36,079 nucleotides of DNA from a virus (Duplodnaviria; Heunggongvirae; Uroviricota; Caudoviricetes), in IMG/VR virus record IMGVR_UViG_2690316109_000010; one strand, written 5' to 3'. Under the pieces are notes generated by a model that did not search any database, was not told the DNA's origin, and saw only the letters and a program-made list of their open reading frames with translations. Positions 17,949 to 35,428 of the stretch are shown one piece after another. The stretch's first letter is position 1; each line of letters begins with the position of its first letter. The translations under genes were made by a program, and so were the position numbers.

Positions 17949-18160
17949 CAGAACCTCGCCAGCCGGTACCCAGGATGCCCCCGTCGTCGTGTAATCAGAG
18001 CCGCAAGGCGGCGCTCCCACTCCTGCCGTCCCTGCCGGATCTCAGATAAGTTTTCCATGGTCATCTGCTGACCATTAAAGGTGACGGATTTTCCGTCCAG
18101 CACCGCCATTTCAGCTTCCATATAACGCTGAATCATGGCTTCGATATCATTCTGGTTCAT
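17948..18160 (-). CDS. W: Head-tail joining protein W-like
   Basis: 70 aa from the ATG at 18160 (MNQNDIEAMIQRYMEAEMAVLDGKSVTFNG...); the ATG overlaps the terminase TGA stop as ATGA and follows GGAGG; pattern is gpW-like. Confidence 0.6.
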   Translation of the reverse strand: MNQNDIEAMIQRYMEAEMAVLDGKSVTFNGQQMTMENLSEIRQGRQEWERRLAALITRRRGHPGYRLARF

Positions 18161-20259
18161 AACCATCCTCCGGAAGTCAGCCAGGGGTTAACATCGTCAG
18201 TTACTGTTTTCTTCCGTTTTTGTTTTTTAACAGGCGTGGATACCGGTTCCGGTGAGGATGACGGTTCGGTACTGTCCTGGACACACTCCAGCCAGGTTTC
18301 CCGGCTCGCCCACTCCGGTGCATCCGGCCAGCGGATCTTTTCGTATCCATGCAGAATGACCAGAGCCTCGGCATACACCATCAGGTCAAAAGCTTCGTTG
18401 GCACCGCGACCCGGCTTACTCCATTTCCCGTCACTGCTCCGCTCTTCATACGTCAGTTCGTCGTAAAACCAGCTCCCCAGCCAGTCAGGGAAATGCACAT
18501 AGCCGGGACCTGGCGAGTCACGCCATAACGCGTTATTCACCCGGTCTTTCAGTGCATCCGTCTGAAGAAGCCAGAGCGGCACATCACCTGCGGCCTGCGC
18601 CCGTCGGCCCGTTCGTCCGGTGTTATCAGGGAATGTACGGGTGATCAGTTTTGCGCGCCGGATGCTGTCGCCCTTAAACAGGTAAATACGTTTACCAAGG
18701 CCATCACGACGGCAACGACGCCAGAATTTATAGGCATTATCAGTGACCCCGTCTTCACCGCCGGAGTCCACCGCCATTGCCATCAGTCGCATTTGTTGAG
18801 AAGGATCGGAGGCCAGCGGCCAGCTTTTATGAAAAACATCCGTCAGCAGGACATCCCAGTCTTCCGGATAGCTGGCCGGATCAATTCGCTGGCTCTCCCC
18901 GTCGCTGTCACCGCGCAATGACTGCGTGATGTTGTAACGATCAATAATCCAGCGTTCGCCACGGCTGCCATAGCCCGTTACCTGAACCACAAAACGGCGA
19001 TGACGTCCCGCCTGCACATCCACTGTCGCCACAAGGAAATTAACGCCATCCGGCACACTGCGGGAAGGAACTGGCTCTGCCCGCTGCTCAAGCAGTTCAC
19101 TTTTTCGTTGCTCCATGCTGGCGCGGGGAAGATAAGGTAATCCCCAGTCGGTATTGATAACCGTCTTGAGTGTTTCTTCACTTCCGGTTGTCTCGTATTC
19201 CTGTTCTGCAGTAAGCAGTTTGTAAACGAGTTGCGAGAGTGTCTGGTAAGCAGCTGCCGGACCCTCCATCCAGAATGACGCAATACGTGAGCGTCGGGGA
19301 TCACCATAACGACTGCCATCCGCATTGATGGATTCACCATCCCGCAACCAGACCCCACGTCCGTTCAGCTCACGTTTTTGTTCAGGCATAATCCGTCCTG
19401 AACAGGAAGGACACTGAATATAAGCCGCCTCACTTGCCAGCACGGGATCGGCAATATCACGGAAACCAGCAACCACATCGCCGCAGGGCTGAAAATACTC
19501 ACCACAGTGTGGACAGGGCCAGTACCAGCGACGGCGATCACCACGGTTATAGAGCGACAGGATCCCCGTGGTTGGTGGAGCCTCATGCGGTGAAGTCCGT
19601 CGCCATTTCACATCCTTCACATCCCTGCCGGGGGAACTCTCCACCAGCGTCATACCGCTGGACATAAATGTGGTGGTACGTTTTGAGGCAAGAGAGAAAG
19701 CATCCCCCTCGCCATCAATATCTTCCGGAAAACGGTCATAATCCGTCAGCGCGACGCATTTATAATCTGATGAGGACATGATATTGACTGACGGCCAGCC
19801 GATTTTCAGGTAGTTACCAGCAAGGAATGTTCTGTCATAAACGTTGTTGTCATTTTTGTTCGGACTCAGGCGACTGACCACTTCCGGGCTAACGCGAAAC
19901 GTTCTGGCGAGTCGTTTTTTGGAGTGTTCGCGGGCTTTTTCCTCCGTCATCTGAATGATCAGCATATCAGCAGGATCGCAAATCACGTTGTAAATCACCC
20001 AGCCGTCAATCAGGCCGATAGTCTTGCCGGTTCGTGCCGGGCCAACAAATATCACTGCGTCGTATTCACGCGAGGCCAGGCAGTTCATCGGCTCAATAAC
20101 ATACGGTGCCACCAGCGGATCCCACGGGACTGAGTTCCCTGCCCCCATGGGCACCCGCATATACTGAGCAACGGCATCAGCAACCCGCATTCGTCTCGGT
20201 GCGCGAAGGATATAACCTGAATCGGTTCGTGCTGCCTTTGCGGTTTCCTGATTCAGCAT
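18157..20259 (-). CDS. A: Terminase large subunit (lambda gpA-like)
   Basis: 700 aa with a P-loop-like GPARTGKT and a CPHCGEYFQPC...CPSCSG zinc-finger-like segment; follows the small subunit with TAATG overlap; strong GGAGGAG Shine-Dalgarno. Confidence 0.9.
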   Translation of the reverse strand: MLNQETAKAARTDSGYILRAPRRMRVADAVAQYMRVPMGAGNSVPWDPLVAPYVIEPMNCLASREYDAVIFVGPARTGKTIGLIDGWVIYNVICDPADMLIIQMTEEKAREHSKKRLARTFRVSPEVVSRLSPNKNDNNVYDRTFLAGNYLKIGWPSVNIMSSSDYKCVALTDYDRFPEDIDGEGDAFSLASKRTTTFMSSGMTLVESSPGRDVKDVKWRRTSPHEAPPTTGILSLYNRGDRRRWYWPCPHCGEYFQPCGDVVAGFRDIADPVLASEAAYIQCPSCSGRIMPEQKRELNGRGVWLRDGESINADGSRYGDPRRSRIASFWMEGPAAAYQTLSQLVYKLLTAEQEYETTGSEETLKTVINTDWGLPYLPRASMEQRKSELLEQRAEPVPSRSVPDGVNFLVATVDVQAGRHRRFVVQVTGYGSRGERWIIDRYNITQSLRGDSDGESQRIDPASYPEDWDVLLTDVFHKSWPLASDPSQQMRLMAMAVDSGGEDGVTDNAYKFWRRCRRDGLGKRIYLFKGDSIRRAKLITRTFPDNTGRTGRRAQAAGDVPLWLLQTDALKDRVNNALWRDSPGPGYVHFPDWLGSWFYDELTYEERSSDGKWSKPGRGANEAFDLMVYAEALVILHGYEKIRWPDAPEWASRETWLECVQDSTEPSSSPEPVSTPVKKQKRKKTVTDDVNPWLTSGGWL

Positions 20260-20753
20260 TACTCCTCCTGCTGTAATTCCTCCTCATCATCCGCACCTGC
20301 TTCAGTCACCCGCAGGGCTATCTGATCGCGCAGATCATCAATAATGGACTGAACACGGCTCACAGCGGCAGGCTGCAGACCGCAGTCACGTTCCAGAATA
20401 TCCGGTAATGTCTCCAGCACCTGCACGACCGCTTTTGCCCAGATGGCAAACTCCCGTCTGACATCACTGGCCGGAATGAGTTGTGCCGTTTCCTGTTCGA
20501 ACTTAAGACGCTCACGTTCAGACTGATACCAGGCTTTGCGCTCATGCGCGTCCATTTCGCCTTCTGCAACCGGCGGTGGCAATGCCAGAAATGCCGACAC
20601 AATATCAACCACCCGATAAAGCTTGAGGTTGCTTTCATGCCCCCCTGCAACGGGTAGATTTTGCAGCCTTGCCGCAGCAGTCTGGCGATGTACACCTGAC
20701 AGTGCCGCCAGTTGACTGATATTCAGCGTCAGATTTTTTAACTCTCGATCCAT
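20259..20753 (-). CDS. nu1: Terminase small subunit (Nu1-like, HTH)
   Basis: 164 aa with N-terminal helix-turn-helix (LTLNISQLAALSGVHRQTAAARL) and acidic C-terminus; about 180 bp downstream of the candidate cosN, as in lambda. Confidence 0.75.
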   Translation of the reverse strand: MDRELKNLTLNISQLAALSGVHRQTAAARLQNLPVAGGHESNLKLYRVVDIVSAFLALPPPVAEGEMDAHERKAWYQSERERLKFEQETAQLIPASDVRREFAIWAKAVVQVLETLPDILERDCGLQPAAVSRVQSIIDDLRDQIALRVTEAGADDEEELQQEE

Positions 20754-20856
20754 ACCCGCTCCAGAATGTTTTAAACATGCATCTCGCGAACAACTTTAGG
20801 CAAACGGTGTTAGTGATGAACAAAAAACAATCAAAATCGACACCATAAAAATAAAA

Positions 20857-20884
20857 CCACTGTAATATCAATCTATTACAGTGG
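20857..20884. repeat. Perfect 11-bp inverted repeat in the candidate cosB region
   Basis: ccactgtaata-tcaatc-tattacagtgg, between the candidate cosN and the Nu1 start. Confidence 0.6.
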
Positions 20885-20914
20885 TGGTGATGACGAATGA
20901 AATTTCAAAAACTA

Positions 20915-20950
20915 GCCTTTTTCCGCGACGCTCCCGCCCCGTGGCAGGCC
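20915..20950 (-). other. cos: Candidate cosN (cohesive end site)
   Basis: The minus strand reads ACGGGGCGGGAGCGTCGCGG, resembling the lambda cos core ACGGGGCGGCGACCTCGCGGG as I recall it; spacing to Nu1 matches lambda. Confidence 0.5.
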
Positions 20951-21110
20951 ACCCCACCGGGAGGACCCGTCAGCCTGACAGCTCTGACGAACGTCTGATA
21001 CAACGCCTTGCATGAATGGCATCGGGATAATCCAGAAAGGCATAGCATCGTGCCCACAAGAATCTGTGTAAGTGTCCTGTTTCTTCCACCCCCGCACAGG
21101 ACTGGCGAGC

Positions 21111-21287: not shown

Positions 21288-21333
21288 AAGGGATATCAGT
21301 TAAGCTATCCCGTGTAGGGTATAAGCCATTATC

Positions 21334-21360
21334 AAAGCCACTCTGTAGGGAGTGGCTTTT
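21334..21360 (+). terminator. Rho-independent terminator for the plus-strand small ORF
   Basis: aaagccactc-tgtaggg-agtggctttt: 10-bp stem followed by TTTT on the plus strand. Confidence 0.5.
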
Positions 21361-21568
21361 GTAATGGCAATAAAAAGCCCCGCGAATGCGAGGCTAAATC
21401 CTGGTATTTGTAATGACTGGCTCTTATCTCAACGCAGCCCCTTACCGCGCGCAAGATGCTCAATATCAAGCATCAGCAATGAGATGTTTAATCTGGATTC
21501 ACTCCAGAAGTGATCACCATCCTGTCTACAGAGTCAGATGTGAAGGATGATGAGTAAAATTATCGCTA

Positions 21569-24341: not shown

Positions 24342-25537
<1,196 letters not shown>

Positions 25538-35260: not shown

Positions 35261-35296
35261 CATTCTTTTCAAGTGATTAGTTGCGCCCACCCTTTT

Positions 35297-35314
35297 TGTT
35301 AGATCAATCTAACA
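35297..35314. promoter_or_regulatory. Palindromic operator 2 (TGTTAGA-N4-TCTAACA)
   Basis: Same half-sites as operator 1 around TCAA, about 35 bp downstream of the repressor stop; a degenerate third copy (TGTTAGG-TTAT-TCTAAAT) lies at 35333-35349. Confidence 0.55.
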
Positions 35315-35428
35315 AAAAACACTTGCCTCTCATGTTAGGTTATTCTAAATTATTTTCCATCAAGACACCGCACGGTGTTCTCAGCAAACAGTTCCGCTAC
35401 CCCGGCGTTAAGGGGAAATGAGGTCAGC

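Follow-up and report, generated by a model that had tools for sequence, protein, structure and literature searches.

A predicted lambda-type cos site, with an inverted repeat around its putative IHF motif, in a common Escherichia coli prophage group

The closest described counterparts of the locus treated here are the cos sites of lambda and similar phages. In lambda, cos occupies the gap between the Rz gene and the terminase genes, and its cosB part carries a box for the small terminase subunit (TerS) at approximately bp 46-60, a site of the integration host factor (IHF) type, an inverted box and a direct box. This layout, R3-I1-R2-R1, is common to phi80, 21 and Gifsy-1 according to Murialdo and Feiss (PMC9026076). 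R3 lies at bp 50-65 in lambda, with contacts at bp 55-63, and at bp 48-59/60 in N15 (PMC9026076, PMC4669245). In natural cohesive ends it is the right half that varies, while cosQ and the CG flanks are conserved (Feiss et al., PMC4669245). Here we examine a candidate of this kind in IMG/VR record IMGVR_UViG_2690316109_000010, a stretch of viral DNA of 36,079 nucleotides that was analysed at its full length and is called the window below. The DNA is that of a lambdoid prophage whose late genes lie on the minus strand. We consider it very probable that the minus-strand segment 20968-20811 is the cos site of this lambda-type prophage, acting through the full mechanism proposed below. What was observed directly behind this reading are the elements in the sequence, the conservation of their positions and the families to which the proteins belong. 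The site is an ordinary, expected lambda-type cos of a very common E. coli prophage group.

An initial annotation of the region had noted a lambda-like cosN core, and the minus strand does read ACGGGGCGGGAGCGTCGCGG at 20942-20923, laid out as ACG/GGGCGGGAGCGT/CGCGG. The 12-nt cohesive end that had been proposed is likewise supported by comparison, the predicted 5' end being GGGCGGGAGCGT at 20939-20928, from the first base of which base pairs are numbered in this text. In its wider context the minus strand around the predicted nick reads GACGGGTCCTCCCGGTGGGGTGGCCTGCCACG/GGGCGGGAGCGT/CGCGGAAAAAGGC. Nicks are predicted at 20940/20939 on the minus strand of the window and at 20928/20927 on its plus strand, positions that follow from homology and from the depositors' choice of record start in the related genomes described below. 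The cosN element as a whole (20926..20941, minus strand) comprises the 12-mer with CG on each side, and a CG dinucleotide lies outside both predicted nicks, as in lambda. The cohesive end of lambda has the same first six bases and differs only at bp 7, 8, 9 and 11 (8/12 match). These differences fall within bp 7-12, the naturally variable half according to Feiss et al. (PMC4669245). The two-fold symmetry of cosN extends to 8 of the central 16 bp, compared to 10 in lambda. The pattern ACGGGGCGGNNNNNTCGCGG finds a single match in the 36-kb window, with 0 mismatches, where the chance expectation is 0.16 with 2 mismatches allowed. The exact 12-mer is present in 66 of 84 related contigs, and the frame of ACG and CGCGG around it in 79 of them. 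The site had been placed about 180 bp upstream of the terminase gene, and we measure 186 nt from nick to ATG (20753).

A cosQ-like heptamer, GGGTCCT, is found at 20962..20968 on the minus strand, 29 nt upstream of the predicted top-strand nick, where the corresponding distance in lambda is 30 nt. It occurs once in the window and aligns with lambda cosQ. The order of cosQ, approximately 20 nt, and then ACG/12-mer/CGCGG is shared by the window, lambda and phage cdtI. To place the site in its wider family we compared 66 loci with TerS relatives (37-100% identity) from Enterobacterales, Pasteurellaceae, Marinobacter and Psychromonas, as well as a close set of 80 viral contigs encoding 99-100% identical TerS, with the sequences anchored on the conserved block 3' of cosN. 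Homology among related contigs starts just upstream of cosQ, and GGGTCCT is seen at -28/-29 in 27 related loci. As a separate observation, phages with a DUF1441-type terminase have two cosQ alleles, GGGTCCT in 27 non-redundant loci and AGGTACT in 20, and the cosQ-allele loci L009, L010, L012, L015, L022, L023, L026, L035, L040, L042-L054, L058, L064, L066-L067 and Gifsy-2 (L156) carry theirs 28-31 nt upstream of the predicted nick. Feiss et al. 2015 (PMC4669245) described no apparent natural variation in cosQ.

Deposited genomes lend independent support to the position of the predicted nicks. The record of phage cdtI (AB285204) begins at the equivalent of window position 20939, and that of phage Tritos (OV696610) begins at the equivalent of 20939 and ends at the equivalent of 20940, which puts the opening of both records precisely at the predicted nick. 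Both are identical to the window from cosQ to bp 33, the 12-mer GGGCGGGAGCGT included. The record of phage LLS, whose TerS is 58% identical to that of the window, gives a 5' extended single-strand cohesive site of 12 nt, GGGCGGCGCGCT, at the aligned nick position, an end that its authors inferred from mEp213 and from Feiss's analysis (PMC12315714). The plaque-forming phages Ayreon, mEp460 and phi458 have TerS proteins 99-100% identical to that of the window, and the same cos region. A physical-end signal was also sought in 119 IMG/VR contigs with the cosN core, and the match is internal in every listed contig; most of these contigs look like prophage regions excised from genome assemblies. The deposited record of mEp460_4F5 (LR595868.1, L154/L155) has its first base 5 nt ahead of the predicted nick, and 3 nt are missing from it precisely at the right-hand nick (GGGCGGGAGCG-CGG). 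This irregularity is probably an assembly artefact at a physical end, which is suggestive, and we do not count it as evidence.

Downstream of cosN lies a cosN-proximal block, CGCGGAAAAAGGCTAGTTTTTGAAATTTCATTC (20895..20927, minus strand, bp 13-45), which is near-invariant in related contigs and served as the family-wide anchor for the register. Inside it is a 10-bp A/T palindrome, TGAAATTTCA (20907-20898, minus strand, bp 33-42). Lambda has a palindrome, GAAAATTTTC, at exactly the same bp 33-42 between cosN and R3, while within the present family the A/T palindrome is not kept in every relative. Seen across the family, the register begins with cosQ, approximately 20 nt, and ACG/12-mer/CGCGGAAAACGGCTAGTTTT, and continues with a box of the triplet type (bp 46-60) and a stretch of variable sequence, followed by an RTGTCGA box at approximately bp 95-103, a copy of the first box at approximately bp 120-125, and the ATG. 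This arrangement is found from Enterobacterales to Pasteurellaceae.

In the window, the first of these boxes is the R3-like box GTCATCACCACCAC (20881..20894, minus strand, bp 46-59), with its core TCATCACCA at bp 48-56, which we take as the putative primary TerS site. Nearly every family member has a triplet-type box here (bp 46-60), in the same register across about 45 loci, and its place agrees with that of R3 in lambda and N15. The R2-like box ATGGTGTCGA (20837..20846, minus strand, bp 94-103) is a weak inverted copy of the R box (TCGACACCAT). Its position is constant and its RTGTCGA motif near-invariant across the family, and in many loci the best inverted 9-mer match to R3 is found at bp 95-97. 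In Gifsy-2 the inverted R2 copy is exact. The R1-like box TCATCACTA (20811..20819, minus strand, bp 121-129) is a direct copy of the R3 core with 1/9 mismatch (p = 0.025 versus shuffles), and a direct copy at approximately bp 120-124 is significant in 74% of 42 loci. The type of box tracks the recognition helix of TerS, such that HRQT occurs with CAT/CAC repeats, NRNM or GRNT with CAG repeats, and HRDT with GGC repeats. The boxes of lambda are of the CGTTTCC type and those of the window of the TCATCACC type, unrelated in sequence, whereas the order of the elements is the same in both. From sequence comparison, then, the layout of this cosB appears to be that of lambda, R3-I1-R2-R1, in which the putative R2 is only 'R2-like'. 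We also tried the two arms of the inverted repeat described below as the true R3 and R2, both being Gifsy-2-like in their CACTG. This assignment was rejected, as R3 aligns at bp 50-56 in both phages and the arms vary among phages that have the same TerS.

Between cosN and the small terminase gene, the initial annotation had pointed to a perfect inverted repeat of 11 bp (ccactgtaata/tattacagtgg). The repeat is present and perfect, and its arms are in fact one pair longer, at 12 bp. It spans 20856..20885 on the minus strand, with arms ACCACTGTAATA (20885-20874) and TATTACAGTGGT (20867-20856) separated by the 6-nt spacer GATTGA, and the window has just one other perfect short-spacer inverted repeat of 12 bp. 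It had been suggested to be a recognition element for the small terminase or for IHF. The IHF part of this suggestion is supported, while for TerS the overlap with the putative R3 is limited to the outer end of the left arm. The centre of the palindrome, TAATAGATTGATA, is the complement of TATCAATCTATTA, which perfectly matches the IHF consensus WATCAANNNNTTR at 20866..20878 on the plus strand (bp 62-74), in the place of lambda's I1. There are two perfect matches to this consensus in the window.

The IHF motif is also constant in place among relatives. In all 41 of 41 non-redundant cosBs, the best IHF match within bp 55-100 starts at bp 61-64 and is in one orientation, with 0 mismatches in 13, 1 in 18 and 2 in 10, and matches in the opposite orientation are far worse. 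Among contigs with 99-100% identical TerS, TTGATATT, which is part of the IHF core with its 3' flank, is near-invariant, and the two hypervariable columns (20874 and 20873) correspond to N in the IHF consensus. Next to the repeat is a T-tract, TTTTATTTTTAT (20845..20856, minus strand), which, read on the other strand, gives an A-tract 9 nt to the 5' side of the WATCAA core. The T-rich tract remains in relatives that have no hairpin, such as L008. The H' site of lambda attP offers a parallel, as it combines the core consensus WATCAANNNNTTR with a 5' A-tract. In H' the A-tract lies 8 nt 5' of the core; in the window the core is perfect and the A-rich tract is 9 nt 5' on the same strand. H' belongs to a recombination context, while here we have a packaging site at which IHF binding is predicted from the motif. 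In the I1 region of lambda itself, the best matches in the same orientation have 1-2 mismatches, compared to the perfect core of the window, and the lambda IHF site is not embedded in a 12-bp palindrome such as we see here. Because the core is conserved in position and orientation and near-invariant in sequence among the closest contigs, and because of the A-tract, the repeat appears to sit on the equivalent of I1. The data support the view that the palindrome marks the predicted IHF site of cosB.

The palindrome itself is much less constant. Its minus-strand RNA has a predicted fold of -22.6 kcal/mol (z = -5.0 versus shuffles), and the hairpin is kept in most close relatives. However, in 84 contigs with 99-100% identical TerS, the 12-bp stem is perfect in only 10, and 30 of them have a perfect stem of 6 bp or less. 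Over the same contigs the folding energy of the element runs from -16.7 kcal/mol, for the allele in the window, which is the best, to -0.4 kcal/mol, with a median of -10.6 kcal/mol. Counting pairs, we find 89.6% of cells paired compared to 88.7% in shuffles. Covariation is weak, and real two-sided variation is seen at one pair only (C-G, T-G, T-A). The repeat is absent from the next cosB type (L008-type, with 86% identical TerS and the same HRQT helix) and from all more distant types. Over the site as a whole, the contigs encoding 99-100% identical TerS (L071-L150) show the highest polymorphism of cos at 20885-20845, the stretch that surrounds the IHF site, while cosN and bp 13-45 are near-invariant. 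We conclude that the IHF core and the end of R3 account for the left arm and the spacer, and that the right arm is unexplained and not required. The perfect 12-bp symmetry is a property of this allele and not a requirement of the site.

Comparison with less similar phages shows which parts of the region travel together. In cdtI and Tritos, cosB is of a different type from bp 34 onwards. Its R3 is CGGCGGCAGCATG and the 12-bp palindrome is lacking, yet it carries the same IHF core, as TAATTTATTGATA at bp 64. The large terminase subunit (TerL) of the window is 88% identical to that of cdtI, with an essentially identical C-terminal half, whereas TerS is only 42% identical. At least four cosB types diverge after bp 33 among the 119 IMG/VR contigs with an identical cosN core. 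Taken together, the contrast in identity between TerL and TerS and the split of cosB types after bp 33 indicate that cosQ, cosN and bp 1-33 form a unit with TerL, and that what follows goes with TerS. On this sequence evidence, bp 33/34 is the apparent recombination junction between the TerL-linked and TerS-linked parts. LLS/mEp213 and Gifsy-2 have the same TerS family, the same register of cosQ, cosN, R3, IHF core, R2 and R1, and a fused protease-capsid head gene like that of the window. They differ in having a shorter cosB (129 nt from nick to ATG, compared to 186 in the window) and an IHF core with no surrounding palindrome, and their R boxes are of the CATCAT type in LLS and the CACTGAA type in Gifsy-2. 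Gifsy-2 further differs in that its IHF-like core is in the opposite orientation and that 14 rather than 12 nt separate ACG from CGCGG. In terms of abundance, matches to the 251-nt cos segment are present in 2119 of the 5426 complete E. coli genomes (~39%), with at least 80% of the segment matched in 1478.

The terminase genes lie directly downstream. The TerS gene (20259..20753, minus strand, 164 amino acids) encodes a protein with a Pfam DUF1441 match (E = 2.7e-41) and a predicted N-terminal winged helix-turn-helix. It had been described as Nu1-like, which holds in the sense of a weak remote similarity, although the Pfam match is to DUF1441 only and not to Phage_Nu1. Using hhalign, a profile of 27 relatives aligns to Nu1 with a probability of 41% (E = 2.7e-4), pairing the helix-turn-helix motifs (LNISQLAALSGVHRQT with VNKKQLADIFGASIRT) and the wings (AGGHESNLKLY with RGGGKGNEVLY) of the two proteins. 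An AlphaFold model of TerS (predicted local distance difference test score, pLDDT, 77) shows an N-terminal strand-helix-helix-wing-helix arrangement followed by long helices. The top Foldseek matches for this model are MerR-type winged helix domains, the TerS DNA-binding domain 6hn7_B (probability 0.97, template modelling (TM) score 0.57) and the Nu1 domain 1j9i (TM 0.53), and a comparison of the TerS profile with PDB sequences gave nothing significant. It is plausible that TerS is remotely homologous to Nu1; it is in Nu1's genomic place, with a predicted Nu1-like role. The TerL gene (18157..20259, minus strand, 700 amino acids) encodes gpA ATPase and gpA nuclease domains (Pfam E = 8.6e-72 and 1.1e-85), and by BLASTP the protein is 25% identical to lambda gpA over 623 residues (E = 5e-19).

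We propose the following mechanism for the site. The gpA-family TerL would nick cosN at positions 12 bp apart, leaving the 5' cohesive ends GGGCGGGAGCGT. The DUF1441 TerS would bind the R3-like box (bp 46-59) via its N-terminal winged helix-turn-helix, and would probably contact the inverted R2-like box and the direct R1-like box as well. By analogy with lambda, IHF bound at bp 62-74 and aided by the flanking A/T tract would bend the DNA and bring R3 and R2 face to face, and the bent complex would anchor the large subunit over cosN. The cosQ element, 29 nt upstream, would by the same analogy serve for the termination of packaging. The palindrome would then be the sequence around the IHF site, its left arm stretching from R3 as far as YAA within the IHF core, its spacer corresponding to TTGA of that core, and its right arm filling the gap between the IHF core and the A/T tract.

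A number of points weigh against reading the segment as a working cos of this design. No experimental mapping of virion ends for this cos was found in the accessible literature, the authors of Ayreon did not locate its cos, and that of LLS/mEp213 was inferred. The phi458 paper likewise contains no end data, and a literature search with the 12-mer returned a single unrelated paper. The inverted R2 match to R3 is weak, with 2/9 mismatches, and is not significant locus by locus. Binding by IHF is deduced here from the motif alone. The right arm of the repeat is not explained by IHF or R-box constraints, and yet an 8-bp core is kept in most close relatives. On the protein side, TerS has no Pfam match to Phage_Nu1 and no BLASTP similarity to Nu1, and none of its Foldseek matches is significant (all E > 0.08). 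Finally, a copy of IS5 stands between the Q gene and the late operon, so the late genes of this prophage may stay unexpressed.

One alternative reading is that the cosN likeness is fortuitous or a relic, with packaging by some other mechanism or a cos that no longer functions. In its favour, the insertion of IS5 upstream of the late operon points to a possible expression defect of this copy. We regard this reading as extremely improbable. Plaque-forming phages and the 2119 matching E. coli genomes keep the region, with near-invariant cosQ, cosN and proximal block. In addition, TerL belongs to the gpA family, and the architecture stays in register from Enterobacterales to Pasteurellaceae. A different possibility concerns the repeat, whose arms could act as adjacent half-sites of a symmetric operator for a dimer of TerS helix-turn-helix domains, replacing R3 and R2 brought together by an IHF bend. 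The left arm does overlap the 3' end of the R3-like box, the arms (CACTGTAA, inverse TTACAGTG) resemble the Gifsy-2 R-box core CACTGAA, which there forms R3 and the inverted R2, and the DNA-binding domain of lambda Nu1 is a tight dimer (PMC4669245). We nevertheless find such an operator very unlikely, as the arms are the most polymorphic part of cosB at 99-100% TerS identity, with the perfect stem in 10 of 84 contigs, and as the repeat is missing from the L008-type cosB with its same HRQT helix. What the family conserves is the IHF core of the spacer and inner arms, and not the arms as such, and it is at bp 46-59 and approximately bp 121, not in the right arm, that boxes varying in step with the TerS helix are found.

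The repeat together with its T-run might alternatively be an intrinsic terminator or an RNA-stabilising hairpin of the late (minus) strand, situated between the lysis and terminase genes. It would stop transcripts not modified by Q before the head genes, while Q-modified polymerase would read through, and in this form it could coexist with a cos. The element fits the terminator pattern, with 12 pairs in the stem, 6 nt in the loop and TTTATTTTTA as its tail, and its fold is stable relative to shuffled sequences. Several natural variants also keep their pairing by G-U on the minus-strand transcript, and the hairpin is kept in most close relatives at the median energy given above. On the other hand, only 4 of the 12 pairs are G-C, the stem being A+T-rich, and the T-run is present in relatives that lack the hairpin, which fits an A-tract belonging to an IHF site. 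All more distant cosB families lack the hairpin and keep the IHF core instead, the stability drops to as little as -0.4 kcal/mol at 99-100% TerS identity, and pairing is barely above the shuffled control. Moreover, a better, G+C-rich terminator-like site is already present 3' of Rz at 21395-21376, and an Rfam scan gave no family match at the repeat. We therefore hold a terminator to be unlikely. To a related idea we also give only a small chance, namely that the palindrome is itself a selected structural element, either a hairpin or cruciform that tunes the assembly of IHF and terminase, or a terminator open to Q read-through that insulates the head genes in lysogens. Were this so, the arms would be under diversifying and not purifying selection, and this would account for the high polymorphism of the arms at 99-100% identical TerS with a hairpin that is usually kept.

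Taking the segment as a lambda-type cos, as we prefer, places the packaging site and the likely genome ends for the common mEp460, Ayreon and phi458 types, the published genomes of which were opened arbitrarily. On the same reading, a DUF1441 TerS goes along with the cosQ-cosN-R3-IHF-R2-R1 layout of lambda, in strict register in phages ranging from Enterobacterales to Pasteurellaceae. The bp 33/34 junction would be useful for predicting packaging specificity and cross-packaging between phages. Beyond annotation, the significance is small.

The surrounding genes follow a lambdoid late order on the minus strand. The Q antiterminator gene (27390-26569) is separated from the lysis genes and late operon by the IS5 element mentioned above, whose transposase gene (DDE_Tnp_1, DUF772) lies at 24410-25390 on the plus strand. 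IS5 may break late transcription, and this copy of the prophage could be defective despite its intact cos and terminase genes. The lysis genes comprise holin (22775-22530), lysozyme (22530-22033) and Rz (22048-21569), all on the minus strand. Approximately 800 nt between Rz and the small terminase gene hold no convincing gene, and it is there that the cos candidate is located, in the same gap as in lambda; RefSeq has no annotation from the lysis genes to the 'DUF1441 family protein'. On the 3' side of the large terminase gene are a W-like gene, a portal gene and a fused protease-capsid gene. The last of these (16687-14468, minus strand) encodes a ClpP-type protease and major capsid fusion of 739 amino acids, and a fused gene of this kind is known from Gifsy-2 and from the head module of mEp213/LLS (PMC12315714).

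Some minor features of the prophage were also recorded. Between IS5 and the holin gene sit two tandem small open reading frames (23971-23543 and 23392-22997, minus strand, 142 and 131 amino acids), each of which matches the TolA C-terminal domain (E = 2.4e-23 and 1.3e-14). Possibly these are morons whose products imitate TolA domain III, perhaps so as to block the entry of phages or colicins. An open reading frame of 604 amino acids with a GmrSD_N restriction-endonuclease domain (32235-30421, minus strand) is probably a prophage-borne defence gene. The G+C-rich terminator-like hairpin 3' of Rz, which is on the minus strand and is followed by a T-run, is adjoined by a 19-nt inverted repeat (89%) at 21325-21368, and in this region Rfam gave sub-threshold matches only (STnc560, E = 0.061). 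The second perfect 12-bp short-spacer inverted repeat of the window is at 35293-35318, with arms TTTTTGTTAGAT and ATCTAACAAAAA and a 2-nt spacer. Located close to the early/immunity end of the prophage, it might serve as an operator or a terminator.

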